From: Dysidea avara
Lineage: Eukaryota
Assembly (NCBI RefSeq): GCF_963678975.1
Contig: NC_089281.1
Location: forward strand, 27,793,151-27,857,150
DNA: 64,000 bases
Reading direction: 5' to 3'
Shown: one piece after another, positions 1 through 62,385 of the stretch
How positions within the stretch are numbered: the stretch's first letter is position 1
Layout of the letters: every line of letters starts with the position of its first letter
The notes under the pieces: generated by a model
Database searches by the model: none
The model's input: the letters and a program-made list of their open reading frames with translations, nothing else
What the model was told of the DNA's origin: nothing
Program-made: the position numbers and the translations under genes

Positions 1-1030
1 TGGCTGTTGTATTAGAGTATCTCGAGTCAGACAAGGAGTGTGCATCTAGCTACACCAATAAGGTCTTGTTTTCTGCTATGTAAATAGCTAGATTGTGAAG
101 AGGTGTGGTCTCTGTACTCTATCGCTTTTGCATGGCATCGCCAGATAAATTGCGAACAGGATCCCAATCATGAAGTTGCAGATATCTAGCTAGTAAGGAC
201 TGAAGTGCTTCAAAAATCCATAACTCTGTGGTGTCTAAATATGCTACTGAAAGAAAGTGTTGATACGGAAAATTAATGCCTTGAAGTATTATTGTTTATC
301 CTCTAGGTAATCGGCATAAGTCGTTCTTCCTTACCAGATCAGTTGATACATATACAACACAAAGAGCAAAGTAGAAACAAATACAAAACACAGAACAAAA
401 AGTACATTAGTTCTAAAATAATAATAACTACACTACACATAAATAGCTACAAGCAGGACACGCACAAATTTAACACTCGTAATTACTTAAGTACACAGAT
501 TTGGCATAATTGACAAATACAGGACAAGTTAACTTTAAGTTACTAGGAAATGATGCTGTTGAATTGATATAAGTAGAGGCACTACAACAAAAATACTTCC
601 TAGTTCTGGAGAGTTTAGATCTACTAGGATTTGCAAAATAGTCACCACAAGAAGAAGACAAGCAGCTTGATTGGAGATAAAAGAAAAGACAAAGCGCAGA
701 GAGCCTACACTCATCGGAACCCCAAAAGGCACATCCCACTGGTGAGTTTGTTATTGTGGCATAAAATGGTGACCATGTGCTGCTTTGTTTAGGCTCTAGC
801 CTTGCAACTGTGGTCAGTGAGGTAGTAAGACTAAAATTCAAGTTTTGGCATTTTTAAAAAATTCTATATCCGCCACCTGTAAGTGTTTTGTTATATATTA
901 TATACCAGTACTATCCTGTAAAGGTGATTTTTGCCGTGTAAGATGTCCCTAGGGTGATTTTCAAAGGCAGAATTTTGGGCGGTGCATGAAATTTTAAAGG
1001 TGATCCCTACTTAAACAGTACTACTGTACC
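1..1030. mobile_element. Copy A of a ~1-kb non-coding dispersed repeat (window starts inside it). It is ~85-90% identical to 38080-38848 and carries a ~360-bp internal insertion (about 295-655) absent from copy B.
   Basis: Direct alignment by eye. Shared blocks include ...gttgtattagagtatctcgagtcag...ccaataagg...agctagattgt(g/t)aagaggtgtggtctctgta..., ...gaaagaaagtgttgatac(g/a)gaaaattaa..., ...ccccaaaaggcacatcc(c/g)actggtgagtttgttattgtggcataaaatggt..., ...ggccacctgtaagtgttttgttata..., ...ggcagaattttgggcgg.... ORFs 470-841 and 535-732 inside it have no recognisable content. Confidence 0.7.
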
Positions 1031-2395
1031 GTTTGATACTATAGTATTGTAATTGTGGACAATACCAGCAATCCACAATATCAGAATCCCATATAATTAT
1101 ACTACATTTAATACACTTGCACTATCAAACCATTATCTGAGCGATAAACATACCTCATAAAATGTACATTTTAACCTGCATTCTCCATGGTGAATTGGTT
1201 ATTATTCAACCAAGCTGAACTGTATGGCACAGTGGTGGATATAGGGACCACAGAAACTCATTTAGTTCAGTGGGCACTGGAGGAGAAGAAGGTGACAAAT
1301 TGCCCAAAAAACCAAGTGCTGAAAACAATGGAAACATATATAGCCTCAAGATTTATAGATTCATACAATTGTGAAAAAACCTGAAACATGTCTAATTGAT
1401 AAGTTGGAGTGGCTGCTCCAAATGCACCTTGTTCACTCTTGTAATTAACTGGCAAAAAACAGTCAGGTTAATCTGTTTAGTCAAAGAAGGTTAATTAAAA
1501 ACTCAGTTTAAAGACTTGTAGTTTTCATTGTTGTTGAATTGTGAAGATGGTATTATTATTAAACTAGTTATGGTTATATTTCGCATTCCAATCGCACAGT
1601 TGATTTGAAACTTAGTGGGCATGTAGCTACATTATTACACACTGAATTGTATCATATATGGCAGAGTTTACAGATGCAGTGATATCGTATAGCAACTGGT
1701 CGATAACTTATACGTATATGGAAAATATACGTGTGGTCAATAACAAATACCAGTGGTCGATATAATTCCTGTTTTTCCTGTTCAACAGCGCTGGTCAGGT
1801 TTATGAGAGGAAACAAAGGTATGTGGGTTACTTTATGGGCTGAATTTTCACAGCCTATAGCACAGTTCGACATTCTCCCTACCCTATAACTGACCCTGGC
1901 ACTATCCAGTGCCTTGTGAATAGCAGATTCAATGATTTCCAACATTCACCAAACTACCAAAGGAGTTGTTGATTACCAGGTCATTGCAGCTGGCAGAACC
2001 AGTGAATACTTGTGACTCCATCGATTTTGCAAAAACACTTCTTTAGACAACTTAGCTGCTGCATGCATGCAATGCAAAACCATATAAGTTTACATTCTAT
2101 TGTGTACTCAGACACTTCACTACACTCATCACAGTTGTATATACCCAGCCTGATCATTTCTAGTTCATATCAAAAAAGTATCAATGATTAACTGTAAATT
2201 AAACATTTAACGAATTTAAAATAACAGAAAATAACAGTCTTTCAAACAACTTCCAATTTATGGGGTTTAGTTTATCGGCAGAATCTTTGATGAAATGTGA
2301 ATCCAGTGATATACAAAATTTTGCATAGCAACGAGTGGAAAAGAAAAGAAAGAGCCTTGTATCGCAACCTTACACATCCAGGTAAAAAATAACAT

Positions 2396-3010
2396 GGTGA
2401 AAAACCTTGTTTTTCATGATAAAATGTAAAATGTTGCTGGGGATCAAATCACCACTGGGTCTGGGATTTTTTTCTCCATTCTTCACATTTTAGTTACATG
2501 TTTCTGACTCCCTGTATTCACAGGCTTTAAGCCTTTTTAGTGGGATAGCATTCACAGAACAAATGGCCTGGTGGATTCTTAATCAGTATGCTCCAACTCA
2601 TAGAATGAGACCAAGTATATAGGATAAGGGCACCCAGTGCACTTTTGAGGTTTGCATTGCAATACTGAGGTAACTAATTTTTCCAATAGAAAATTGTATG
2701 GAGCATGCATTATGGCAGAGTCAACTGTGAACAACTGCCAATATAACAATGTTACAACAAAAGTTCAATTTAAGGGCTTTGTTTTATGTATGGTTTGTCA
2801 GGCAAATTATGGATTCTAATGGGCACACTTCTGCATTTTTGTATATAACATAATATTTTGTGAATGCTATCCCACTAGGGACCTGTGAGAAGGCTAAAGC
2901 CTGTGAATACAGGGAGTCAGAAACATGTAACTGAAACGTTGAAGAATGCAGAAAAAAATCCCAGACCCAGTGGTGACTTGATCCCCAGCAACATGCAGTC
3001 TAGGCATGTG
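2396..3010. mobile_element. Foldback/MITE-like element: ~150-bp inverted arms (2396-2560 and 2870-3010) around a ~300-bp core; a partial extra arm copy at about 3075-3150.
   Basis: The left arm ...ggatcaaatcaccactgggtctgggatttttttctccattcttcacattttagttacatgtttctgactccctgtattcacaggctttaagcc... is the reverse complement of the right arm ...ggctaaagcctgtgaatacagggagtcagaaacatgtaactgaaacgttgaagaatgcagaaaaaaatcccagacccagtggtgacttgatcc.... Confidence 0.65.
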
Positions 3011-5260
3011 GCAAAGGAGCCACAACAGTTGGGATCTCTGCATTCAACCTGCACTTAAACATCTACTTCTTGCCAGCAAATGGTTTTATTCTGCGAATGC
3101 TGTCCTACTAGGGACCTGTCAGAAGGCTCAAGCCTGTGAATATATGTGGTATTTTCCATAGGGCAAAAACAATGGCTGTTGACAAGATTTTAAAACTGAT
3201 TAGTGGGACCAAGCTAAGACTACAAAAAGGACATGGCGTAGTTAGTGCTGTATTAAGTTGACAGTTTCCAATAGCCTTTTTTGATATGTTGACCCATACA
3301 CCAGGGTAATAATACATTGGGAACAAGTGCTAAAATAGCTAGTGTAACAATGTCATAACATAATGTACATACTGTCTCAAGTCAAGTACAGCAAGCTACC
3401 TGATAGCCCACGTTAATCTTAAGAAGCCAATAAGTAACCACAAACAGATTTGCGCCTTTCCATGAATAAATTAGTGGTAAAAGGAAAAGTAGCATAACTA
3501 GCTTTTTGAAAGGATTGCTGCAGCGATTTTGTGATATAAAGTGCTTATAACCAAGTATATAGAATGTGGTAAGCCACGAATCCATACACCGGTGTCCAGT
3601 TGCAATGATTCACTATGGCACTTGTATGTCTTCATTAATTAGTGGGCGCCTATTCTATTGCTGTTAACATGATAGGCTAAATAATTTTCCAAAACAATAT
3701 GCTAGGCGATCAAAATTTTGACTTATAACAGGTACAAAAATATCTCTACAACCCTATGGATCAGAGAATTGTCATGGATCGTAAATAAGATACCATGTTC
3801 TAATGATAGACTTTAATCCATACAGTTAGTAAGAATGATGAAACTAGGCCTTAGGAAAACTTCAAAGTCCAACTAGTGTGGTTGGCGTATTATTTCAGTA
3901 GAACAGTTCTGATTAAATTCCTTTGTAGCTCAGTACTGTGATAGTAGTGCCTAGGTTTGCTTGATAACTCAATCACTTACTATAATGCTATATCTTACAA
4001 TGGTACAGTGAAACAAAACAATTTCCTATCCTGTGAAAAACAAGATCCAATATTTGCACTGATGGGTTATGGGGTAGCCTCCACCTTAAACTCTGACCTT
4101 ATAAGCTTTCAAAATGAAGCTTCACAAATAAAATGTAATACTGGAAACTTGGTTATGAATACATTTTTACACTTTCGACTGAGTAGGCTGCCTCAAAGTT
4201 TATGTAATCAACAAATTAATTAAATAAATACTACATAAGGCTTGCAATAAAGTTGACCAGACCAAACTGAAGACTCCAGGTGCGTGCAACAACATTTGCT
4301 GCATTACATCATCATCCTACTCATTGCACACTGAATACCTTAAATCATGCACTTCAGTTGCAGACAAACACAGCTACAAATGAAAGCACTTTTGAAATCC
4401 AGATAGTTTTACTCTCATGCTGTTATAAGAGTAGCTTAGACTGTATAACTATATATACCATAATACACTAAGTTCACGATGTATACTCAGTGTAAATAAA
4501 TAAGGTGTCTGATCATGAAAACATGCTTCCGGCAGATACTCTTTGTGGTTTTAGAAGCTCTGACATTGGATTGTATCAACCATATATAGTAAATCTGATG
4601 CTTTAAACTAACTAACTAACTATAGAGCAAGATTCAGCTGCAGCTGTGATACTTGATTGCTATATTTCAATGTTTGAACAGTAAAGTGCTGCTGACAATT
4701 GTCACCGTGAAATTGGTTTGCAGGGTCACATGCCTGGTAAAGCACCACACCTCAGTTGTGGCATCCATGCAGTGTGCTCTCGATGGCCCATGAAAATCTG
4801 AGGGAGCAGATGATTATCATGTCCAGCTGTACTCATAACCACAGCAGGTCTCCAAGGTGAACAGCCTCTAATTGATGGAACAATGAAAGTATAAAGGAAG
4901 TTTTGATAGGTATTACAATGAATGTTGATACTGAAATGCATACAGTGGTAACATAGTTATTTTGCTACAATCAGTTGTCAATGCAACTATAGTAAACCTC
5001 CAACTCATGGAAGAGCTCAGGTATCATTTCTGTTGAAACCACAGAAACTCATAATATATGCCTTCTAGCTATACTTTTAGTGAAAGCCCATGTATTAGTG
5101 TAAGCTCAACTCTTTAATACTTAGGAGTGACATTGATAAATTAAAATGCAGTGCACAACTATTTGGTTGACTAGTCATTCTTATACAACACACTGTATCC
5201 ATGCAATTAACTAGTCTCACGTGGCCAGACCACTTTTTCTCCATGCAGCGTTTATCAATT

Positions 5261-5575
5261 GGAAATTATAAGCACCTGCTCCAAAAAGGGTCTGGAATGG
5301 TTAGCATAGGTAACTCGTTTAGCATAGGTAACACAAGATATGTTTACCCGTTAGGCATAGTGTCAGTCACTTTTGTCAGTAAATCCATGCCTCACTTCAA
5401 GTGGCACACGAAACAAGTGTTGAAAAAGATTTAGAACTCGAGTTGTGGGTCAAGTTGTGGACAAAGACTTGTTGGAATTCATTAACACCCTCCACAGTGG
5501 TTGGGGGTTAGAAACAAGTTGCCTATGCTCACTGTTTCAGATCCTTTTTTGGAGCAGGTGTTTATAATTTCCAAT
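5261..5575. mobile_element. MITE-like element with ~33-bp terminal inverted repeats.
   Basis: 5' end attggaaattataagcacctgctccaaaaaggg; 3' end cctttttttggagcaggtgtttataatttccaat (reverse complement of the 5' end). Internal sequence is non-coding. Confidence 0.6.
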
Positions 5576-8345: not shown

Positions 8346-10029
8346 ATACTGTATGACAATTAAGGAATTTCATGCAGGAATACAATGAACTACCAGCATC
8401 TGGTAACAACATAATTTTTGTGCATTTGTAAAAACAGTAATTTTGAGACATGATTGTCATCACACACTCCAAATACAAACACACATTTGCATGCAGTACA
8501 CCGTTTTATTGTAACCACATTACAAAATGAGGTCATTACATCTTATTGATGACTATGATGAGAACAATCATAGACACAATCTGCATGTGATTTCAGATTT
8601 TCGGTTTACTAAATAATGATGACGTACTTTACAATAATGATTTCACATTAACACACACATTGACATGCACACAGTTGCTCAGCCTGCTGTGCTGGTGACG
8701 AGTGAACTCAGCAATAAATTCTGCTACTCCCATGGTTAAAGAAAAAAACCATAAACACACAGAGATCATCTATTCAATATTGTTGTTCAACAACTCTTAA
8801 TGACATGATTTTCTTTTCATCTGGCCAAGGGACGCTCAATAACCAATAGGAGTTTTGAACTCAGCCAAAGGAGTGGATAGATGTTTGCACTAGTGAACAG
8901 CCAGTATGAGATAAGCATGTAACCACATTTGCAAACTGAATCATGTCAACTGCTTGAATCATGTAGGACAGTACACACCCATGTGTATGTGGTTGCATGA
9001 TACATCAACAAAAGCTTTAAATCACAACAATATACCTGTGTATGGCTTCAGTATTCAGTGCTGAAGGATTTTAGTAATATCCATCAAAGAAATATCCATA
9101 AGGAAATATCCATCAAATTATTTAACTGTCTTTCATTCAGCTACTCAGAGATCTAGTTAGCAATGATTCTTGATCCAAGAAGAAATTGCTCCAAGTAATT
9201 TGCATTCCACTGTTAACATTGAACACTATTGATTATAATCTTTGCGCTATTGTTAAGGGGACCACAATTTCTAAAAATTCGATAGCTGGTAGCTATTCAA
9301 TAAAGGGCTGTGTAAATGTATGGCATATAATTCGTTATCAATTTTCAGTTCGTATATGACCATACCCACTTGTTTGATTGTGCAAACCTTGCACAAGATT
9401 TCACCTTTAGTAATTCTGCCGCATTGTTGTAGTCAACTTTTCGCTCATCATCCTTCAATCTTTGTAAAGCTTTAGAGTGTGCAGGAGTTTTACTAAGTAG
9501 CTATACTGTGTTAGCATGCACAAACTAAGTCAGAAGGAATTCACTTGAGTTTTCATGTATTTCTTTTCACCATTTTGGAACTTTAGAAGAGAAGCCAAGA
9601 ACACTTCACTTCTCCAAGAGTACTATTGTAAAACTGATGCAAATATTCTCGTATATAGTCTAATTGTCGTGTGTGGATGTGACGTTATTAGATTGCACCT
9701 TTATGGCTGAATAGCGGCTATATAAACAATGCAGAGCCGCACTTTTACAGTTTAAGAACTTTTTCACCAGGAAAAGAACTATTGAATTGTGCGTGTAGCA
9801 TGTGGATTAACAGTACAGAATAGAAGATAGAAAATTATGGGCCTACATTTTTGTACACTGATAAATCAGCAAAAAAGAAAGTGAAGAAAGAGCGCCTACC
9901 AATTAAGATATATGCTTCTAACAAGACCTTCTAGCTGTGAGGCATCTCACCAAAAGTATTGCTTGAAGCCTAGAAAAAAGAAACCACCTAACTATGGATA
10001 AATCATGTTCTCCCACAATAAATAAATAA

Positions 10030-10275
10030 ATACAAGAAGTAGAAAGAAAAATTAGGAATCTTAAGTTGGATTAGGGATGAAAAAAAGAAGTGAAACAATA
10101 AAGGAATAGCTAAACAGTTGTGAGGTTGTCCTATACCTGCAGTTACAGACTGAACTAGAATAAGGATTAAATATATCTGCAGGTAGAGACAACCCCTCTA
10201 GTTTCACAACTTTCCCTCTTGTTTCACTACTTTTTTGCTTTGGTTCCTAATCCAACTTAAAACTCCTACTACTTG
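10030..10275. mobile_element. MITE with a palindromic core (ctgcagttacagactgaactagaataaggattaaatatatctgcaggtagagac). Same family as 29490-29670, and possibly 45050-45585.
   Basis: TIR-like ends aaattaggaatcttaagttggattagggatgaaaaaaagaagtgaaacaa / ttgtttcactacttttttgctttggttcctaatccaacttaa. 29505-29560 carries the related ttagggatcatagcaaaagaagtagtgaaacaa. Confidence 0.55.
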
Positions 10276-10552
10276 TTTGTTTACTTCATATAAGCTAATT
10301 ACGACTATGAACTCATGGATACAAAGTGATGTCAAACAATGAATCAAACCCGTAGCTTTAATTATTAATGTACAAACTCAGCGTGAGTATCACGTATATA
10401 TTACAATAATTATTGCAGTTGACCTATGTAGTGATTACAAAATGATGATTTAGTCTGTCTTTGAAAATTTCAATGTCAGGTGATAAAACAATGTCCATTG
10501 GTAAAGCATTCCATTATCCATTGTCTATATAGTTATGCTTGGCTGGAGGCAC

Positions 10553-10600
10553 CAGTCAGTCAGTCAGTCAGTCAGTCAATCAGCCAGCCAGCTAATAGAA
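10553..10600. repeat. (CAGT)n / (CAGC)n microsatellite.
   Basis: cagtcagtcagtcagtcagtcagtcaatcagccagccagc. Confidence 0.9.
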
Positions 10601-13600
10601 AATTCAGCTAAAGTGCCAAGCTGCATTCATGAAGGAAAAGTGAGGCTGGTTTCTGGGTGATATTTTTGGACAAGAAAGCCCAAATCTCCATGATCCCTAG
10701 TGAATATACCGTACTGTATGATTCAGAAACTGCCTTGCCTCATGCTAAGGCACTCGGCATTTAGCTATTATTAATCATGCAGTTAGTTACCATATGCATA
10801 CATACATTGCTTGAGTGTGGGTATACAGACACAACAATTCACCAAAATTAATGGTATCTATAGCCTATATGTACACAATCACTACATAAATAACTTACTG
10901 CTGGTTTCTCTTCAGTTTAGCAAGCTTCTCTTGTGCTTTGCTTTTGTTTGGTGCTATCACTTTGAAAGCAGCCACTGCAAAAAAAAAATTATCGAAATTT
11001 ATCCATCATCAGCAACATTGAAGTTGTCATTTAACCTACTTCGCAAGTCTGGAATGTTTGGATCATCTGGAGATATCACCGGAAGCACCGACAACGTTAA
11101 GTGTTCCGAGCTACAATTGAACACAAATAGCGCATGACTAATTATGCGGATGATAATATGGCTACCGCGGCTACGAAACTTTACTGTGACCCCCCGGCAG
11201 TACGAACGGTATTGCATGTTGCTAAACTGACAGACCTGCAAAACACGTAGCCTTTTCCTTCCTTCGAATGTAGGAATATTATATCCCCAATGCGCAACGA
11301 TTGTTGTTGCTGCTCCCGCACAGCCATGAGCTACTAGCTACTAGGAGTCGCTGGAGTTTAGACTTTGACTGTCGTACACACCAGATGCTTGTTTCAAAGG
11401 ATGAAGCCAGAATTATTGAGGATTTCCCACGAAACTAAAGCGGAAAAACATGAGACATTGCACCACTTGTGATTCAACAGACTCTAGCCTGAGTTAATTA
11501 CAATGTGTGGGTTCCTCAGACAGCACTACTCATCAACCACTCATACTACTGCTCCAGCTTTACTTATTCTTAATTTACTAGGCAGGCAGCACAGCTGGTT
11601 TGCCCGCTAGGATATAAAATCAACAATATTACAGTGCATATGTTAGAGTATAAAGCTAGCTAATTGTGACATCAAGAGTTCTCCCTTACTTTTATTATGA
11701 ACTCTTGGTAACATTGATGCTGGACTCAATGAGTCAAACACGGATCCTGGAATGTATCTGTGTAAGCTATGCATTATAAAAGATGGGATTATGGGCCTGA
11801 TATTGGTGCTCCGTAAATAGATTCAGCTGACACCAAAGCCTGCAGGACATTACCCTTGGGCAATTGTCTGCTTGCATATTAGCAAGCATGTCTGTCCTCT
11901 TATTGTTTCCGGCTTGAGTGCTTCCTGAAAAAAAAACACATCGGTTAGTTTTCCTCTGCATTTTGGGGATAACCCACCCAATTTCCTCTGAAACAAAAGA
12001 GCACCGCCCATGTCACATTAACTATTTTGTAGTTAAAGGAAACAGGGGGGTTCAAAGGGTTCCATGGAACCCCCCTTTTGAAAGAGCCTCTTTTACTGGA
12101 GATACTCTAATAGAGCATGCAGTCAAGATCGAGATACTCTAATAGAACAGTCACAGTATTCTTAAGAGGAGCAGTGTAGCAGGCTACGTGTGGAGTTATA
12201 AAGAAAGTAATATAGTTGGTGAGGAGCAGCTATTGTCAGCAGGTGATGACTTTTTTTTTTAATTTTAGTCTTCGACTTAGGTGCACCTTTGACTTACAGC
12301 TAGGCTGAAGTTGCAATTCCAGAGTGGAACCCCCCTTTTAAAAATAAAGTCTGGATCCGCCCCTGGAAAGAAGAGATTGAGGAGGAGGGAAAGATAACGA
12401 CTCGCGAACTGTTTACTGCAAAAATACTGGAATGTCAGACTGGCCCCCCTTATAGACCTCTTTGAAGTGCACACCTAAATTATTGGAATGTGCTAGGCGG
12501 TTGGGTCAAAACCTGCATGACTAGTGTGACAATTTAATCCAGGCAAGCTCGTCCTGCTAGTTAACCCTGTTTAACCTGCTGTTAAACTTGTAATAAACAA
12601 TCAATAAGTTACAGTGCGGTCTAGCTACTCAACAACACTGAAACTCCATCATTGCATACAGCAGCTGCTACTCAGCTACCTGACTCCGGCCTACATCAGT
12701 TGGTCAGGGAACTAATAATGAACTGGACAAGAAAGTGAAGAAATGGTCAATAACTATATTGTCTTATAAGTTGGTGTCTAGCTAATACATACTGAGGATT
12801 TCCAAATCTTTGCAACACCTAAATATGTATGGCTGAATAAAGTTTTGCTGAATGAATCCACAAGTTTAATACACCATGCAGGCAAGGTGTTGGTAAACAA
12901 CTAACAATAGGGTTAGCTTGGTCACTATGCATTGTGGTATTCATTAGAAGGTATCAACAACAGGTTTGAGATGGTACCATATGTAGCAGCCTGCCTGTTC
13001 TAGATCATTCTGTGCTATAACAGGGAAGCAGTGGCAGCTAAGGAACAGCAGTATCACTATTATGTTTGCAGTGCTGGAAAAGTTTTATTGAGTTGATATT
13101 AAAGCTTAATACAGGAACTTATCAAGTATGAATCCTACTACAACATTATCATCAATCCCCATGGAGCTACAAGACCATCCATCCCAGGATGCCATCATGG
13201 AGATAATGTGGCTGTGGTAGGCATGCACTTTCAGCTGGCCATTTAGATGCTATTGTAGCAGCAAGTATATCTTATTTCTGAGTCACAACTACAGCAGTTT
13301 GTTTGGCTCCACAGCTGACAATCATGTATGTACGCTAATGCAGGTAAGTAGGGTACTATTAAGCTCTTTAGTTAGTTACAAGGCTTGGCACGCCACAGCC
13401 ACAAGCTTGTTGCCAAGGAGATCCAGCATAGGGAATCCACCATAGGGGAGACAGCAGACTGATAATACACCTGGACACTGCATGCATTTCATGGAAGATA
13501 GCATAAGAAATACATTCTGTAGAGGGGTTTAGCACAGGCTGAGATAACACCTCACTTCCTGTTTGAACAGGATGGTTAGTTCTGTGATGTGATAATTAAA

Positions 13601-14389
13601 TTTCTGGGGAAATGTGGAAGTAGGTACACTTGGCTTAGGACTCTGAAGTGAGGCATCTCTCCTGGTGCCCCCTTATGCTAGAGAGATGTACCTACCAATT
13701 AATTTGCTGTATGGTAGGGATGTACCTACTGATTAATTTGTTGTATAGTAGCTACAGCTGTATGTAGAGGTGGTACTGTACCTTCCTGGTGATCAGGGGT
13801 AAACTTAGACTCATGGTAAACACACAGAATTCTAGATCTTATATTTTTTTTTAAGTTGCAGAACATCAGGATAACTTTACTTTTAAAGAAAAAAATTTGA
13901 CAGAGCAGCAAATGAATATTTTCACCACTCTACTAAGAATTTCTTAGATTAAACAGCCTGAGGCTAACTATAGTACACACTCTTAAACTGTGGAAATTAT
14001 AGAATTTTGCTGCAATATATATTTCACAGGTACAAACGCATTTAAGTATGTTGGAGTTTTTCATTGTATTATTGTTTGCAAAACATAGTTTAGTGTGGGG
14101 TCAATTTCACTCAATAATCACAGAATGAGAACCATGATTTATAGACATTTTTGGCTTAGAATTATGAAGTTGTTTTTTTTTTAAATCAGATATTTAAGCA
14201 TAAAAGTATTTAATGTAAACAAGCACCCAAATGTTGCATCTTAGAAGTGTTGTTTACCCTTGACCAGTGCGATTTTTATGGGAGGAACTCTCATTATTAG
14301 TCAACAACATTCGTTGTGAACACCTTGTGCACTTCTGTGTTTGCCCTTCAGGGCTCAACTAGTAAAGTACATTACTGACCAGGTGTACA

Positions 14390-14880
14390 ACTTATAAATT
14401 TGCTGTATGGTAGGGGTGCACTGCCAACTTGCTGTATGGTAGGGGTGTAACTATTGGCTTGCTGTATCTACCAGCTTGGTGTATGGTAGGGGTGTACCTA
14501 CCGGCGTGCGGTTTGGTATGAGTGTACCTACCGGCTTGCTGTATGGTAGGGGTGTACTTACTGGCTTGCTGTGTACCTACTGGCCTGCTGTATGGTAAGG
14601 GTGTAATTACCAGCTTGCTGTATGGTAGGGGTATACCTACTGGCCTGCTGTATGGTAAGGGTGTAACTACCGACCTGCTGTATGGTAGGAGTGTACCTAC
14701 CGGCTTGCTGTATGGTAGGGGTATACTTACCGGCCTGCTGTATGGTAAGGGTGTAACTACCGACCTGCTGTATGGTAGGAGTGTACCTACCGGCTTGCTG
14801 TATGGTAGGGGTATACTTACCAGCCTGCTGTATGGTAGGGGTGTACCTACTAGCTTGTAGGGGTGTACCTCCAGTGTTGC
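14390..14880. repeat. Minisatellite of ~30-bp units (consensus ttgctgtatggtaggggtgtacctaccggc), about 16 copies. It contains an exact 90-bp (3-unit) higher-order duplication (14642-14731 = 14732-14821).
   Basis: Units are read directly; related degenerate units at 13690-13745. ORF-track entries 14392-14997(-) and 14522-14860(+) are repeat-driven open frames (PLPYSRPVG.. / LLYGRGV..), not genes. Confidence 0.9.
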
Positions 14881-15167
14881 CTGGCAGTTAGGGGCTTGTA
14901 GCAAGCTATACAATTCATGAATAAGTTGGCAGCAACAAATACTGGTGTTCTCTGTCAGCACATACACCAACCTGTTATTTGGGTTATCAAAAATCACAGT
15001 TTAACTTCTGCTGCTGCAAGCTTTAATTTTCTGGTAATAGCTGACTCAACAAATCAGTACAGGAATCCCTGTCTCATTGTTCATTGACACTTGGTAAATC
15101 TGTGGGTACCTCAGGTCTCATCAATTGTATGATTACCCGAGATAATTCCATACCCAACTGGTCCTGG

Positions 15168-15195
15168 CTGTTTGTTTGTTTGTTTGTTTGTTTTA
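15168..15195. repeat. (TTTG)n microsatellite.
   Basis: gtttgtttgtttgtttgtttgtttt. Confidence 0.9.
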
Positions 15196-17764
15196 TTAGC
15201 TACCAGATCAGATGGGTAAATCTTCAGGACTAGTAGGGTATGGCGTCAGGGAGAGGTCTGGCTTTCCACCTTATGGTGTGTAATTAATCAAGCCTCTCCT
15301 GGCTTATCTTGGATGCCATATTCTCTCAAAAGAAATGCCATGAATCACCTATGAGTATTGGACAGTAAATAGGGCTACAGCCACTGATTCCTATATCATG
15401 GGATGTCTACCCTCACTCTGTTTGGAGCAGTGGATATGGGAACTATCAGATCATGGATATCTCAGTTGCTAATTATATCCCAGACAGTAGTCATAAAAGT
15501 TATTTGGATGCACAAGAGTCATCTACCACAAATATTGACTGCAACATATCAAAGCGAAGTGATTGGCTATCTAGCAAGACTTGTGGCACTATAAAGAAGG
15601 CAAAAGTGTTTTGTGGGTGTAATGCCAAAGAGTTGTCTCCTTGAGGATAATACCAGAAAAATGGTAACTGATTGCTGATTTCCTTGTGTGGGAGTATAAT
15701 AACAGAGCTCCTGATAATTTTTTTTTAGCATACTGTCAAACTGTCAGTACAACAAGGATTTTGTCTGGACATAGCAAAAAGTGTACTGATGTACTTCTGA
15801 GTTTTTCAGTGTGCAAACCAGAAGTAGCGTAACAATGTCATAACATAATGTACATAGTGTTTGTAGTCCAAGTAGGAAAACAGGTGCTTTAAGCTATTAA
15901 AGCGAAGTTTCAACATGTTTCATAGCTGACAAGCACAAGTAGGCTGGTGTACAAACCTCAAAAATTGGCTTGAGATAAAGTTTGTGTGGTCACATTAGAT
16001 ATTATGCCTTGGTAAGGCTGTTCTCCAGCAATAAAATAACAGAACTGTCTGATTGTGGAATGTTATTTGAGCAGTGAAAATGGTAGAAGCACAGCTGTCT
16101 TACACACATTGATAAATGACATGGCTATTCTAGTAGCTCCTGGAATCTCTTTTACGTATAGTAAAAGCTGACATTCAAGAAGAACACATTATGATCCCAG
16201 GCTTCCCAGCTCAGTATTCACTAGGTATCGAAACAATCTATATGAACAAGGTTGGCCTTTGCCCTACCCTTATAATGTCTGGCATAGTGTGCTTCTATGG
16301 ATATTAAGCAAAAGGGCTGGACACTATTGATGATTTTTTACTGCAGCTAGTAGCAAGGGACCTGCACACAGCATCAAGGCAAGAACAGAAACTACTGCAT
16401 GTCCACAATCTACAGCCTCCTGGTCTTACTAGACCAGTCACAGTTAAATTAAAGGTGTCCACTACCTGCCTGGCATTTCTAGGGAGCAAGATAGACTTGG
16501 AGTGACTACAGCTACACCAGCCACAGAAGATATTGACATCTTCTCTAACTGTTAACATCTATTTGTAGTTCATCCTTCAATTTCAAAAATAAGTAGTGAG
16601 CCTTGCTTCACAACGTGTATAGCCAGGAAGACAATTACTCTATCCAACATAAGGTTGGCACCCACCCTAAACCCTTAAAGAGACTAAGCATATCAGCAAT
16701 GGCAGACATCCTCATGTGGCACTTTTGTGGAAAGGTGGAACAGTCACTGTTGTGGGATTGAGCATTAGGCACCAGCATATTAATTTTGTGCATAATAGGT
16801 GCCTGAAAGCATCAAGCGTAATGCTAGCATAATAGACAGAAAAATGTTGTCATATTGTAAGCAATAATGCATGCCACAGAAAAAGGTTGACTTACACTAA
16901 TAGAACAGTCGATGCCACTGATATGGCATTAAGTAGTTATCTGACACGACTGTTATATATAGTTAACAATGCAGTCAAATTCTTAATGCACAACGAGTAC
17001 TTTTTTACATTTAGCCAGTTGTTCATAAGCCAAAGTTTATCATTATCCATAGAAAGTAACAAAACATTGGAACTGTGGCAAAAAATTTGAGCATAATTAT
17101 GCACATATTGGGAAAAATTTTTGAGCACTGCAGCATAGCATAATAGGCAAAATTAAAAGCATAATAGGCTAGTGACTATTGAGCATGTTTAAGTGTAACT
17201 TTCAGATGTGTCAGGCTCATGTACATGTAACTTTCCAATGCCCACATTGGTTCCAGCTTTACTGGACCTCCCACAAAAGTCACCTGTCCATTACAGTTAA
17301 TACACTTATTTTAGTGATTATGGAAGGGTTAGGGTCTGGGAAGATGACGCAATTGGCACATGGTTGCAGTGATAAATGTTCTCACTGTAATTCTTCACTG
17401 ACTCACAAATGGTAGAGCTACTTTTACACAGGCAAATGTTTTCATTTATAGCCGTTAACAGTTCTGGGAAGAGATATACAATGGCACTGCATGTGTGTGT
17501 GTGTGTATGTAGGATTAATGCATGAGAAATGTGAATACATTGCATCCCGTTTACGTTAGTTTTGATATTAGAGCACAGTCGATCTAAATTAATGCAATTG
17601 TCCAGTTGCTTTGGTGGGTGAATGGACCGGAGTCATGGTATATTTGGTGGCATGTAATGGCTAGTCTTCTGGAAGACTAGCTTGTATGGGTAAGTTGGCA
17701 TACCACCAAATATAACAGCCAGAGCCTTATCATAGATGTTGGGGTACACATTTACCATGACCCA

Positions 17765-27238: not shown

Positions 27239-36790
<9,552 letters not shown>

Positions 36791-57044: not shown

Positions 57045-58292
57045 TCATCTTTGTGTGCAAGTCTGATGTGATCTCTTTGTCAAACAGTGATGCCTACACA
57101 TGTCAAAAACAACTTGACACTTGTCATCACATAACAAGCTATACGTCACCTTATCAAAGTACATCTTTGCTTTCTCTTCCGACCGTTCAATTCCCTGGCC
57201 CAGTTGAAGACACCTGGCTAATACAAAACAAGAAATGGCTATCCCTCTGTGCACTAGGTGAGGTATGAATTGTTCTTGAAGAGTCTGTGCTGCTTCTTTG
57301 TCCAAATCACAGATTCTAGTAACATTGAAGTTTTCTTACAGGTCTCATGTGATATGTACATACTTCAAGGCATTTTCTACAGCCCGTGAGTAGAGTTTAC
57401 TGTTGAAATATTCACAACTGAGCAACCCATTGGCGTACATGCAGCCTCTTATAGATGATTTCTTTAGCCATTTTATTCCAGTAGTTTTATCAGTGGTACA
57501 ACCATGCCCACTTAACATCATTTGACCTAGTGCAGCTGTGTAAAATAAACTGGATGTTATTGTAACAAAAATAATGACTCTTTACCCATTGATTCTAGGT
57601 GTCCACTTTCTGCAGCCTTTTGGTGCCAGTGAAAAGCCTGTTAAATGCATAATTTTAGTATTAAGTGATACATTTTTCCTACCTGCTGGAGGTTTAAGCT
57701 GTCTTTTCTTGAGAATAACATCCCAAGAGCATTCTGGGCTTTGATGCAGCCAACATTTTGCTGGTTGGAAGCATTTGCTGCCAGTATGTACCATTGAATG
57801 GCTTCTTCATCTGACTGATTGATACCAAATCCTTGGAAGTAAGCCTGTCCTATGCTGAACTGGGCACTAGGAACTAAGTGGTAGTGTTCCTTCTTTGTTG
57901 CCTGAGCAACTGCCTTCATATACTGCATTCCTTTATGCTAGGCAGTAAAACAAAACTTCAAAAAAGAAAAATGATTTGTTACGTACTTGATCTTCAGCCA
58001 CTCCAAGACCATCATAGTGCATGACTGCTAGTTGGTAGGTAGCTTGCAAGTTACCTTTTTTGTCAGCCATGTTAAAATAGTTGAGAGCATTGGGATAGTC
58101 TTTCTTCTCAAAGTAGTATTGACCAAGTGAGAAGTGTGCATAGGCGTTACCTCTCTCACTTCTATCCACCATACAATCCAGCCATTCCTGACTGCCAATC
58201 ACATAACTGGTCTGTTTCTCATCACCACTGGGAGGAGAAGTGGTCTCGTGAGCACTATCATCCCTAGGAACCGCTTCAGAGTCTGTTGACAT
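57045..58292 (-). CDS. LRP2BP: Sel1-like-repeat protein orthologous to LRP2-binding protein; 4 coding exons as modelled, with the 3' end uncertain.
   Basis: Minus-strand exons: 57987-58292 (MSTDSEAVPRDD...GNAYAHFSLGQYYFEKKDYPNALNYFNMADKKGNLQATYQLAVMHYDGLGVAEDQ, then GTACGT); about 57672/57683-57937 (HKGMQYMKAVAQATKKEHYHLVPSAQFSIGQAYFQGFGINQSDEEAIQWYILAANASNQQNVGCIKAQNALGMLFSRKDSLNLQQ...); about 57365-57560 (..ALGQMMLSGHGCTTDKTTGIKWLKKSSIRGCMYANGLLSCEYFNSKLYSRAVENALK); about 57045/57150-57315 (..EAAQTLQEQFIPHLVHRGIAISCFVLARCLQLGQGIERSEEKAKMYFDKV..). Matches my recollection of vertebrate LRP2BP (..HQATYQLGVMYYDGLG.., ..[27 protein letters not shown]..). Coordinates in the 57300-57700 region are uncertain by up to about 10 nt. 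The stop may be at 57045 or in an unseen terminal micro-exon after a GTGACG donor at about 57149. Confidence 0.65.
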
Positions 58293-58719
58293 GGCAACAA
58301 AACTCTAAAGAGAAAAACATTAAACATACACATTCCTATTATAGCTGATACAATGTATTAGTGGGGTGGTTTATTCGATAAATGTCTACATGGACTGTGA
58401 AGCGACCTTCAGTATATAGTCACGCTACTATCTAAGGTGTGACCATAGATGTGTATCTATGGTGTGACTACTATCTATGATTTAAAGGCGGGGCTGTGTC
58501 TTTATTCGTAGCTATAGTAAAAATCTCCCTCCCACATTGCCAATATCACAGCCACCTTACCTTTCGTAGTAACCTTAGTCGTAGGCTGGGTCGGAGGTGT
58601 CTAGTAGGTGTAGCAACATCACTGCGCGTTAATTAGATCCGAAAGAAATGGTTGTGGGAATAAATCTGACAGCAGTGGAACACGCTGGACCTGATATAAG
58701 CTTAATTCAGTTATAAAAA
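58293..58719. promoter_or_regulatory. 427-bp divergent intergenic region between the LRP2BP-like gene (minus, ATG 58292) and the FHA-UBZ gene (plus, ATG 58720); candidate bidirectional promoter.
   Basis: The start codons face away from each other, and the interval carries no ORF-track entry or recognisable coding sequence. Confidence 0.35.
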
Positions 58720-61700
58720 ATGGTAGATAGCACGTTTACGACTCTTGTTCCTGGAAAGTTTATTTTAATCGGTAGAAAATCGTGTGACATAACTATCAAT
58801 GATGTTCGCATCTCCAGTGTGCACTGCGAGGTCGGATCGGTCAAGATGTACGAATGGGACATGTTCCCAGCTTGTACTGTATACGTTGAAGACAAGAGTA
58901 GCAATGGAACGTGGATATGTCGTAAGATTGGTCTGTCATCTTGGGGAGCCTACTGCAAACTAACAAAGGGATTAAAAATGAGTTTTAGTCCAGGAGATTT
59001 TATCTTGTTACTACCACCAAGTGTCTCTGCACCAGATTACTGTGCTTTCTCACTGGAAGCTGATGAAACTTCTAATGTGTTTGGTTTAAAGCATCTTACA
59101 GCTGCTGATGTTAAAATTAGAGTTGATGCTAAGGCTGACACTAGTCTGGGAACTGTATCAATAAAGAGAACTTATTCTAGAGGTGAAACATCACCGGATG
59201 GATGTGCTACTAAGAAACCATGTTTATCATCACCCTTACCACCTGCTGTAACTAGTGATAAAGGCAGATCCTCAAAGCATGCAGTAGCAGTACCTGTATC
59301 AATGAGTACACATGGCTCAATGGAACAGTGTCCCATCTGTCTTGGTCTTTTCCCTGTAAGTGAACTAGTGGCACACTCAGAATTGTGTTGCTCGTCAGAG
59401 GTGTCACTGGTTGACGGTACTGATGGGATAGATAGATCTTCACATGATGTGCTTTTAGCTGTTCCTAGTAGCTCTTCTGGAGTTATTGAACTTGAGCAAT
59501 GTATCCACTGCCTGCAGGATTACACTGTTGCTGAATTGGTCGATCATGTAAATATCTGTCCAAAGAAATCAAAATCAACAGTATGGGTTTTATGTTTGTA
59601 GAGTGTGTGTATGTGGCATCATTGTTAATTTCACATGTACACAGGCGGATGTGACAGAAGTAGAACATTGTCAACATTGTCTTGGTCTATTTCCATTGGA
59701 TGAAATAGTCAGTCACTCATTGACGTGTTCCCACAGGGCCACGTCCACAACTGTTAGCTATTACCTCATAAACCATTACATCATGTGAGCTATTGTTAGG
59801 ATAGTACAATGGGTGGTGATAAGGAGGAGCTATTGGAGAGATGTATGCACTGTTTTAGGGATTTCCCTATTAGCGAACTGGTCCGACACATGCCAGAGTG
59901 TACTGGCGATATGTGTGGACCAAAGGAACGATTTAAAGGCTTCGTCCCATCTGTTCATGATGTATGTTGACAAAGTAACAGTACAATTTTGTGGTGTATC
60001 CATTCACTGGATTGGACTACTGGACTGGACTGGACTACTGGACTGGACTACTGGACTCACATAAAGTTTGCTCAAATACCTTTTCCAACCACTAAAAGTG
60101 ATTAGCCATATGATCATTACTTTGTATACCACACACTCAGGGTTCTCAGTGATTTGTCTTGCGTTTAGAGGCACATACAAGAACTGTAATCTAGTTTTAG
60201 TGGTCTAATGGTATGATAAATTTGTAATCAATGTACAGTGTAGGTTGAATTCTTAAAAATTTGTACATTACATATGGTTTTTCTTACCTGCCTGTTAGAT
60301 GGTGTGTGCATGCATTGAGAAGCATTTCTCTCACTAACTGAACACTGCACACTCGTTGCTATTTACAAGCGTTATAAACCAAGGAGCTTGCCAATCTACA
60401 GGGTATATGCTGAAAGGTGAGGGAATGCTACATTATTTCAATATACTTGCAAATATAAAACTGACTGAATTTTATGTCAATGTGTGCTATTTCAAAACAC
60501 TGACAGATACATTTAGCAGTGTTAACAGTGCACAGTGCTTGTGTTGTTGCTAGCGGTAGGCAATTTATTTTTGATAACGAGCCATGCTGAGGTCTTAGTG
60601 TAGTTTTTGTAAATAATGTGCAAGTTTTTATGTCTTGTGTGCAAGTCTTGTCTTGTAGTGAATGGTATGATTTCTAAAATACTTCTATGGTAAAGTGTAG
60701 CTATAAAAGGCAAGAAAACAAAGAAAAGTTTGAGTCCAGTAGTCATCCAGTCCAGTGAATGGATATACCCACGATTTTGCACTACCACAAACTGTAAAGT
60801 TCTTTGGATGCTTAAAAAGCATTTGTGGTATACTTGTTTTTATTATTCATATTTTGTGTACACAGATTGATGCCATGGCAATGTCAGTACTAACAGATAC
60901 ACAAAGAGAAGCTGTTGACTATGTGCTGCAGCGGTCAGAGGCCGACTCTCGGAAAGTGTTTCCAAAACTTCTGAAGAGGGTGAAAGGCTTGGGATATGAT
61001 GAGAAAGATCTAGAAAAGTATGACACTAACAATTTGGGTTTGTAGTTGGTGTATGTAGCGTTCACCCTAGAGTTACTTTTTGTATGTAACACCAATCAAG
61101 TACTGTAATATATATTATATCACTAAGATCCTTCAGATCTTTATTATCTTGTCTGAACTCATTAACTGTCTAGTGTAAAAATGACCAGAGTATTTCACAC
61201 TTGTGTCCATTAGTATTACAGAAGTATATGTTTTATTAGAACAATTGAATGGACTAAATGGGCTTACCCAATTTACTAGCTCTAGGAACGCTAGTGTATA
61301 AGATTCACCATGCTGTCTCATTTCCAATCCACAGGACATTACTTTGGGTGAGGCTCAGTGCCCCAATAATCATTCATATCCACCTTGATCGAGTACTCAG
61401 CTTCCTAGTCAAGGACACTCATTATCGTAACTTATTTGAGACCAGGACTGGTAGTGGGTGTCTGGATACTTCAGCGAGGTCCTCATGGGAGGTGTGTCTT
61501 GTGTAGTATGTTCTTGGTAATGCTCACTTCATTTTATAGGACAGAATATTTAACAATGTTTATCATGATAGTGAACCATTTGAGAGAGTGAAGTATGGCG
61601 TCTTAAACATTGGTCTGTGTGTGTGTGTCTGTGTGCGTGTAGTGAGTGTGTGTGTCTATGTTGTGTTTCTGCTTGATAAGTTTGCGGTACTGTAAAAGTT

Positions 61701-62385
61701 TTTTTTGTTTTTTTTGCAGTTGGAGATTTACGTGGTGTACGTTCCTGTTATTCATATGGTGACTCCTTCCTTCAGGTACGTGTGTATGTCAACTGCTTTA
61801 TATGATACGGCCATGTTCCCATCATTGATTAGTTGAAGAAGGTCCGTCTACGTACTACATTTGCATCCATGGACACATCAAGTGGAGCAGTGAAGTTGTC
61901 TTGTTGTGAACACTATGGCAACGTCTTACATGAGTACTCTGATCCTGAGCTGAGGGCGGTAAGGGGTGGTGTGTATTCTAATGATTTGGAGTACCTTTTT
62001 CTTTTGCAGATAATTGATGTTGCCACCAGAAGAGAAGATCACTTAAAATCTGATATGATTTCTAATTACAAAGAGGTAAATTATTATGGGGCAGGTCTCC
62101 CTACAGGATACAGTGTAATAGTAGTTGTCACCATAGATACAGATACATGGTCCAGTCTGCTTATCAGAAAATGTTGAATGCATTGTTGTCAATGAGAGAT
62201 TTCGAGGGGACTCAGTGATTGAGAGACAACTTGAGGAATTTGTAACAAATAACAAGTGCAATTTGATATGGATGGAACCAGATGATGCTACTACTTCCAG
62301 GGCAACACCGACAGCAATGGCACCACATTTCGCTCCAATGACACCACTTTTTGCTCCTAGAAGGCGTGGAAGAAGAAGATACTGA
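58720..62385 (+). CDS. FHA-domain protein with four tandem UBZ4-type (C-x2-C-x12-H-x3-C) zinc fingers and an unrecognised ~260-aa C-terminal region. Provisional 8-exon model, about 600 aa.
   Basis: Exon 1, 58720-59580 (ORF track 58720-59601), has an FHA core ..FILIGRKSCDITINDVRISSVHCEV.....YVEDKSSNGTWI.. and the fingers CPICLGLFPVSELVAHSELC and CIHCLQDYTVAELVDHVNIC; a GT donor follows immediately at 59581. Exon 2, 59645-59784, has CQHCLGLFPLDEIVSHSLTC. Exon 3, 59805-59961, has CMHCFRDFPISELVRHMPEC and a GTATGT donor. Then 60866-61037 (IDAMAMSVLTDTQREAVDYVLQRSEADSRKVFPKLLKRVKGLGYDEKDLEKYDTNNL), 61720-61775, 61830-61958 (LKKVRLRTTFASMDTSSGAVKLSCCEHYGNVLHEYSDPELRA), 62010-62075 and 62137-about 62385 (..NLIWMEPDD..APRRRGRRRY*). 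Phases are consistent for all junctions. The exon 2-to-3 join needs either a 20-nt GTGAGC..ATAG mini-intron (59785-59804) or a 1-nt frame change; otherwise there is a stop at 59786-59788. Confidence 0.55.
59990..60770. mobile_element. ~780-bp foldback/TIR element whose arms end in (TGGAC)-type microsatellite, lying in an intron of the FHA-UBZ gene.
   Basis: Left end ccattcactggattggactactggactggactggactactggactggactactggact (59993-60057). Right end ...gagtccagtagtcatccagtccagtgaatgg (60731-60762) is its reverse complement. Internal ORF 60356-60553 is junk. Confidence 0.5.
61615..61675. repeat. Imperfect (GT)n microsatellite.
   Basis: tgtgtgtgtgtgtctgtgtgcgtgtagtgagtgtgtgtgtctatgttgtg. Confidence 0.85.

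Follow-up and report, generated by a model that had tools for sequence, protein, structure and literature searches.

In a 64,000-nucleotide stretch of the Dysidea avara genome (NCBI RefSeq assembly GCF_963678975.1, contig NC_089281.1, positions 27,793,151 to 27,857,150 of the forward strand; hereafter the window), we detected a gene whose product joins an N-terminal FHA domain and four tandem C2HC fingers to a C-terminal ADP-ribosyltransferase (ART) domain of the type known from the bacterial effector SopF (Pfam family DUF3626). Based on this combination of domains, we propose, as a possible and still tentative reading, that the protein is a recruited modular mono-ADP-ribosyltransferase, gated by its FHA domain and by fingers that would read a second mark. 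To our knowledge, SopF has so far been regarded as an isolated bacterial ADP-ribosyltransferase without informative relatives. Here, its catalytic fold and its NAD-contacting residues turn up in early-branching animals and in many protists, as part of multi-domain proteins. The ART domain itself belongs to the known DUF3626/SopF family, and the interest of the gene lies mainly in revealing a large family of eukaryotic ARTs, as yet uncharacterised, with a bacterial effector among its relatives.

The identity of the C-terminal domain carries this proposal. An earlier note on this DNA, made without database searches, had recognised no motif in the C-terminal part of the protein, a view that is overturned by a match to Pfam DUF3626 at 66.2 bits against a gathering cutoff of 27; the sequence SCCEHYG and the end RRRGRRRY, which the same note had pointed out there, are both present. 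DUF3626 is contained in the Salmonella type III effector SopF (PMC6682159). This effector is an ADP-ribosyltransferase that uses an I-Y-E triad, depends on ARF GTPases for its activation and modifies Gln124 of ATP6V0C (structures 7DN8 and 7DN9; PMC10333799). When a profile built from 60 homologous domains was run against the PDB sequences, the SopF chains were found at an E value of 8e-14, whereas a whole-protein phmmer search of the same sequences returned weak FHA matches only and missed SopF. The fold match to SopF extends over 235 of the 275 residues of the domain, with approximately 20% identity. All fold matches of the C-terminal domain were ARTs, and a macrodomain or PARG-like reading of this part of the protein was rejected on that ground. 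NCBIfam and PADLOC gave no match for the ART domain.

The catalytic residues of SopF could be followed into the window protein. In SopF, Y224 and Y240, which contact nicotinamide, and E325, which contacts the N-ribose, are needed for activity, and the mutagenesis primers of the same study place these residues in the motifs PIYAAL, SAYGKS and YIEAHIHG (PMC11937434). In the profile alignment, these three motifs fall on KYGVL, YSYGDS and YKEIQIHG of the window protein, i.e., on Y499, Y517 and E587, all of which are invariant in two independent family alignments (60 and 67 sequences), as are R476, E480, K498, R530, Q589 and G592. The position of the triad isoleucine lies in a low-scoring, low-confidence stretch of the alignment, in which the SopF isoleucine pairs with I441 and the next residue, an asparagine in SopF, pairs with H442, which is near-invariant beside the strand-1 isoleucine in the eukaryotic family. 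The strand-1 residue that faces NAD may thus be either I441, giving a SopF-like I-Y-E triad, or H442, giving a classical H-Y-E triad. With all the defining features that could be tested found in it, the C-terminal domain is a member of the DUF3626/SopF family. The earlier note had suggested an adaptor that reads phosphorylation and ubiquitin marks together. This suggestion is only partly supported, because the C-terminal domain has a SopF-type ART fold with the catalytic residues intact, so that the protein is, judging from its sequence, most likely an enzyme rather than an adaptor only.

The FHA domain proposed earlier for the N-terminus was confirmed. Pfam FHA (PF00498) matches amino acids (aa) 16-66 at 32.2 bits, with a gathering cutoff of 20.7, and the canonical residues of such domains are present as G18-R19, S32-S33-V34-H35 and N62-G63-T64, aligning with those of Dun1 and Mek1 in phmmer. 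The G-R, S-x-x-H and N-G residues of FHA domains bind phospho-threonine. In the AlphaFold2 model, which covers aa 1-377 and was computed with 18 homologues, aa 1-126 are predicted to form a beta-sandwich of ten strands of at least three residues, with a predicted local distance difference test score (pLDDT) mostly above 90. The top 18 Foldseek matches of this part in the PDB at E <= 1e-3 are all FHA domains, the best being Mek1 (28% identity), followed by Dun1, Rad53, TIFA, APLF and NBS1.

Between the FHA and ART domains, the four fingers noticed earlier were confirmed in number, and their spacing had to be corrected. All four read C-x2-C-x11-H-x3-C and not C-x2-C-x12-H-x3-C; the x12 pattern matched none of the family fingers and turned up only twice, at unrelated positions of the distant homologues P0010 and P0088. 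In a shuffle test of aa 191-380, none of 50,000 shuffles gave four matches to the pattern, the mean being 0.003 per shuffle. Each finger is predicted to fold as beta-beta-alpha, with a block-mean pLDDT of approximately 79-94 and with disordered linkers between the fingers, a fold that is common to many non-UBZ fingers. The best-conserved stretch of the finger region in the alignment is finger 4 together with the linker GPKERFKGFVPSVHD, which adjoins the ART domain. These are genuine tandem C2HC fingers of a RAD18-like kind. The spacing is identical in the UBZ4 chains of RAD18 (5vf0, 2mre) and WRNIP1 (3vhs), with which the window fingers also share the CCHC ligands, the predicted beta-beta-alpha fold and, commonly, C-P-x-C and a proline before the helix. 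In hhalign, a profile of 43 fingers, taken from the window protein and its relatives, could be aligned with the RAD18 UBZ in register at a probability of 95%, and nearly as well with the TRAF-type finger of FLN29/TRAFD1 (88%). The window fingers differ from the UBZ4 of RAD18 and WRNIP1 in lacking the H-L-D-x-C-L signature, and also in number, since UBZ4 usually occurs singly and is found here four times in tandem, five times in the sponge Ephydatia and in approximately nine pattern matches in the coral Pocillopora. A FAAP20-type (UBZ2) reading was rejected, the motif D-x-H-x-A-x-C-L (PMC4267625) being present in none of the four fingers.

The closest database proteins are those of sponges and corals. 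The best match, at 61% identity, is that of the sponge Ephydatia muelleri, in which an FHA domain, five fingers and DUF3626 follow each other, and related proteins were found in the sponges Amphimedon and Oopsacas and in the corals Oculina and Stylophora. In Pocillopora, the repeated finger pattern again stands between FHA and DUF3626, and the chytrid Nowakowskiella combines five fingers with DUF3626. The comparison with other invertebrates to which the earlier note had pointed gave orthologues, with the whole architecture recurring in sponges and corals. The claim that this architecture matches no well-known family stands in so far as no named family with the FHA-finger-ART arrangement was found, and fails in so far as the protein is no one-off, given its presence in sponges and corals and, in part, in a chytrid. 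RNF8, CHFR, APLF, NBS1 and TIFA are similar in that an N-terminal FHA domain comes first and a further module, for recognition or as effector, comes after it, but none of them has an ART domain or tandem C2HC fingers.

Several of these relatives also bear on the structure of the gene. In one protein (P0002, from the SRR25073302-4 contigs), the FHA domain, five fingers and DUF3626 lie in one uninterrupted open reading frame (ORF) of 793 aa, which settles the one-protein architecture in that organism without any splicing model. A set of ENA proteins (P0017-P0024) has the FHA domain and fingers without DUF3626, stopping in junk sequence just past the equivalent of finger 2. They seem to be ORFs that comprise just the first exon of orthologous genes, and they end where exon 1 of the window gene ends, pointing therefore to a conserved intron position. 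At another locus (L003, ENA ERZ20067936, 6610-7698 and 9974-10579), the equivalent of aa 434-635 of the ART domain is unbroken at 72% identity, compared with six exons and five introns for the same residues in the window, so that this gene is intron-poor. In Oculina patagonica (L002), tblastn detected two tandem copies of the finger/DUF3626 gene (388-5416 and 9700-17068), and the annotated product of 1577 aa may be a fusion of the two.

A family profile search of 1.84 billion representatives placed these proteins in a wider context. The number of proteins found was 4406 with a cutoff of E <= 1e-3 and 878 with one of E <= 1e-30; many of them come from protists, and a protein of the giant virus Terrestrivirus (P0099) has a domain with 36% identity to that of the window. 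Among 67 long representatives, the Pfam partners were EF-hands (16), WWE (10) and, with two each, E2 (UQ_con), RanBP2-type fingers and RING; FHA, Tudor/Agenet, WW and an endonuclease/phosphatase domain were found once each. In further relatives, a UBA domain precedes the ART domain (P0032) or a BRCT domain is present (P0013). A number of members have C2HC fingers of the same spacing ahead of the ART domain, and in protist homologues there are one or two such fingers. Modules for signalling by ubiquitin, ADP-ribose, phosphorylation and calcium thus dominate among the partners. Pairs of EF-hands are the most frequent partner (representatives P0129-P0248), and the best structural neighbours of the ART domain include the calmodulin-activated ADP-riboxanases CopC and OspC3, on account of which some DUF3626 members may be regulated by calcium. 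The coupling of an ART domain to reader modules is known from PARPs of the PARP7/11/12/13/14 type, with their WWE domains or zinc fingers, and from the ubiquitin/ADP-ribose crosstalk of the DTX3L-PARP9 type. The window protein resembles them in pairing an ART domain with readers, and the protist DUF3626 proteins in carrying WWE, UBA, E2 and RING. If these proteins are active, they would make up a branch of eukaryotic ADP-ribosylation that lies outside the PARP family and is as yet uncharacterised, and they would bear on the origin of SopF and on what SopF imitates.

The domain identities, the fold, the conserved catalytic residues and the recurrence of the architecture are results of the analysis, whereas we infer the enzyme activity, ubiquitin as the ligand of the fingers, the substrate and the place of action in the cell from the domains and their relatives, in the following theoretical scheme. 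The FHA domain, whose nearest structural matches are those of the checkpoint kinases Mek1, Dun1 and Rad53, would dock on phospho-threonine marks, and the four flexibly linked C2HC fingers would bind a second mark in a multivalent manner, most plausibly ubiquitin or ubiquitin chains. The ART domain would then move ADP-ribose from NAD+ onto a nearby protein substrate, and the action of the enzyme would be confined to places that bear both phosphorylation and the second mark, such as damaged chromatin or another stress-signalling platform. The FHA-finger-ART form of sponges and corals offers a concrete, testable case of such a phospho-gated, and possibly ubiquitin-gated, writer of ADP-ribose.

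Several observations weigh against this scheme. RAD18 requires D221, two residues past the zinc-binding histidine, for the binding of ubiquitin (PMC3157352), and this position is occupied by E, N, L and P in fingers 1 to 4, respectively, with an Asp in none of them. Across the 43 family fingers, it is most often E (11), followed by A (5), P (4), S (4), T (3) and Q (3), leaving Asp outside the top six. The sub-threshold Pfam matches of the same fingers are mainly to XAF1_C (14), zf-C2HC_2 (8), zf-Di19 (5) and TRAFD1-XIAF1 (3). UIM-like motifs can be seen by pattern in protist relatives, at sub-threshold Pfam values (E 0.06-3.7), and were not counted as evidence. A full-text literature search, in which subscription journals were partly covered, gave nothing on eukaryotic DUF3626 proteins. 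The activity of SopF depends on an ARF GTPase, and no counterpart activator is indicated for the window protein. A nuclear or DNA-damage site is suggested only by the type of FHA domain, one BRCT-fused relative and the basic tail, and that tail could alternatively bind lipid, by analogy with the C-terminus of SopF at membranes.

The label UBZ4, given to the fingers in the earlier note, is consequently unproven, because the ubiquitin-binding Asp is missing and the weak Pfam matches point to fingers of the XAF1, TRAFD1 and C2HC types. The RAD18/WRNIP1 spacing and the RAD18 profile alignment speak for the label; the Pfam thresholds, the retrieval from the PDB and the Asp position do not. No finger of the 43 rose above the threshold of any Pfam model, with UBZ_FAAP20 and zf_UBZ as weak matches in two fingers each, and a search of the PDB sequences with the 43-finger profile did not retrieve the RAD18 or WRNIP1 UBZ chains, giving only marginal matches to TRIM37, FLN29 and a viral Gn finger. 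We hypothesize, from the sequence comparison, that the fingers bind ubiquitin and that finger 1, the most RAD18-like of the four and with Glu where RAD18 has Asp, is the likeliest of them to do so.

The same evidence supports a somewhat unlikely alternative, according to which the protein is the same enzyme with fingers of the TRAF/XAF1/TRAFD1 or CEP104 type that bind another protein or nucleic acid, making it an innate-immune or stress hub with a TIFA-like FHA domain. Besides the missing Asp and the predominance of XAF1_C, zf-C2HC_2, Di19 and TRAFD1-XIAF1 among the weak Pfam matches, this alternative is consistent with the finding of FLN29/TRAFD1 rather than UBZ chains in the PDB profile search, with the hhalign probability of 88% for the FLN29 finger, with the Foldseek matches of the finger array to the CEP104 finger array, TRAF6 and FLN29, and with the presence of TIFA among the FHA matches. 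XAF1, TRAFD1 (FLN29) and CEP104 do have tandem C2HC fingers of the same ligand spacing, but all matches to them are sub-threshold and no architecture beyond the fingers is common to them and the window protein. The RAD18 UBZ profile match is also slightly better than that to FLN29, and the best FHA matches are those of checkpoint kinases. The UBA domain of P0032 and the RanBP2-type fingers that two representatives have somewhere in their sequence suggest, since relatives carry them, that the window fingers are ubiquitin-binding equivalents.

A broader version of the gated-enzyme proposal, which we regard as clearly unlikely, would see in DUF3626 an ancient and widespread eukaryotic ART family (878 clusters at E <= 1e-30) that is linked to readers and writers of ubiquitin, namely C2HC fingers, UBA, E2 and RING, and through WWE to the reading of ADP-ribose, and that writes ADP-ribose on ubiquitin or on ubiquitylated targets. 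The FHA-gated version of sponges and corals would couple this activity to phospho-signalling, e.g., the DNA-damage response, and SopF would be a bacterial derivative or mimic of the family.

It is quite improbable that the protein is instead an endogenous counterpart of SopF, with an ART domain that modifies the V-ATPase c subunit or another endomembrane target and that is recruited by the ubiquitin-binding modules to ubiquitin-coated damaged compartments, tuning ATG16L1/ATG8 conjugation there. SopF is the only characterised relative and acts on ATP6V0C, the fold match covers most of the domain, and the ubiquitin-binding modules and weak PB1 matches in protist relatives recall autophagy receptors. 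The polybasic tail of the window protein, which is kept in orthologues as RRRHRKRRRR, KRRRKRRRRRRRRRR or KRAKR, may act as a nuclear localisation signal or may bind lipids; the latter option arises because the C-terminus of SopF is needed for membrane association, and such a tail could bind acidic lipids. On the other hand, the identity to SopF is low, partners such as FHA and BRCT are typically found in damage signalling in the nucleus, the matches to PB1 are sub-threshold, and nothing in the substrate-binding surface ties it to V-ATPase. Only a slim chance is given to an ART domain that modifies nucleic acid, as DarT or Tpt1 do, and that the FHA domain and fingers would bring to damaged DNA.

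The gene model on which the recruited mono-ADP-ribosyltransferase rests agrees with the span noticed earlier, whose two ends were exact. The coding region lies on the plus strand, starts with the ATG at 58720, closes with a TGA whose last base is 62385 and encodes 669 aa. The eight exons counted in the earlier note became ten coding exons, linked across the three plus-strand frames by nine GT..AG introns of 47-904 nucleotides. Splicing is required, because intron 1 or intron 2, if kept in, leads to a stop codon after a few codons. The spliced protein is colinear with its orthologues. When it was aligned with eight relatives, no indel was seen at the exon joins from exon 3 on (e.g., SWE|DRIFN, VLNI|VGD, FLQ|LKKVRLRTTF, ELRA|IIDVAT and YKE|IQIHGPV), and the first two joins lie in a variable linker in which the alignment is gapped. 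Compared with SopF, which is a single-domain secreted bacterial effector, the window protein is the product of an intron-containing eukaryotic gene, with the FHA domain and the four fingers ahead of the ART domain and the polybasic tail behind it. A non-catalytic scaffold or a gene-model artefact, i.e., an inactive ART-like domain or two adjacent genes misjoined, has very little probability: prokaryote-style gene calls do split orthologues into separate ORFs (L003; P0017-P0024), but this reading is unlikely because the catalytic residues are conserved and the architecture recurs in relatives, with all family-invariant residues present (the SopF catalytic equivalents included), canonical splice sites throughout, indel-free joins from exon 3 on and the single ORF of P0002. 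The coordinates of all features are collected in Table 1.

Table 1. Features of the FHA/finger/ART gene and its neighbour, in protein (aa) and window coordinates.
Feature	Protein (aa)	Window	Strand	Basis or remark
FHA domain	1-126	58720-59097	+	Pfam, phmmer, AlphaFold2, Foldseek
Finger 1, CPICLGLFPVSELVAHSELC	204-223	59329-59388	+	exon 1; pattern and AlphaFold2
Finger 2, CIHCLQDYTVAELVDHVNIC	261-280	59500-59559	+	exon 1, which ends just downstream
Finger 3, CQHCLGLFPLDEIVSHSLTC	296-315	59669-59728	+	exon 2
Finger 4, CMHCFRDFPISELVRHMPEC	338-357	59842-59901	+	exon 3
SopF-type (DUF3626) ART domain	363-637	59917-62286	+	exons 3-10
Key ART residues	I441/H442	61372-61377		
Key ART residue	Y499	61594-61596		
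Key ART residue	Y517	61755-61757		
Key ART residue	E587	62073-62075		
Other key ART residues	R476, E480, K498, R530, D537, Q589			
Polybasic C-terminal tail	RRRGRRRY	62359-62382	+	basic tails kept in orthologues (alignment)
Exon 1		58720-59580	+	GT..AG borders
Exon 2		59645-59752	+	GT..AG borders
Exon 3		59800-59961	+	GT..AG borders
Exon 4		60866-61017	+	GT..AG borders
Exon 5		61335-61491	+	GT..AG borders
Exon 6		61540-61612	+	GT..AG borders
Exon 7		61720-61775	+	GT..AG borders
Exon 8		61833-61958	+	GT..AG borders
Exon 9		62010-62075	+	GT..AG borders
Exon 10		62137-62385	+	GT..AG borders
Neighbouring Sel1-repeat gene		57150-58295	-	ORF list; tblastn with sponge Sel1 neighbour

The Sel1-repeat gene and the FHA/finger/ART gene are arranged head-to-head, with approximately 430 bp between the two start codons. 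The same divergent pair is found in Ephydatia muelleri (L001) and in the SRR25073302-4 contigs (L004-L006), and the two genes may share a bidirectional promoter and a functional link. Within the FHA/finger/ART gene, intron 3 contains a short tandem repeat of the GGACTGGACTACT type (60000-60050), and intron 6 starts with a (TG)n-like run (61613-61665).

The DNA of the window is AT-rich, with 34-42% GC. Elsewhere in it, a long ORF on the minus strand (14392-14997) consists of Pro/Tyr-rich repeats of approximately 10 aa (PLPYSRPVGT...), and a long (CA)n microsatellite at approximately 34600-34850 is read as His-Thr repeats.

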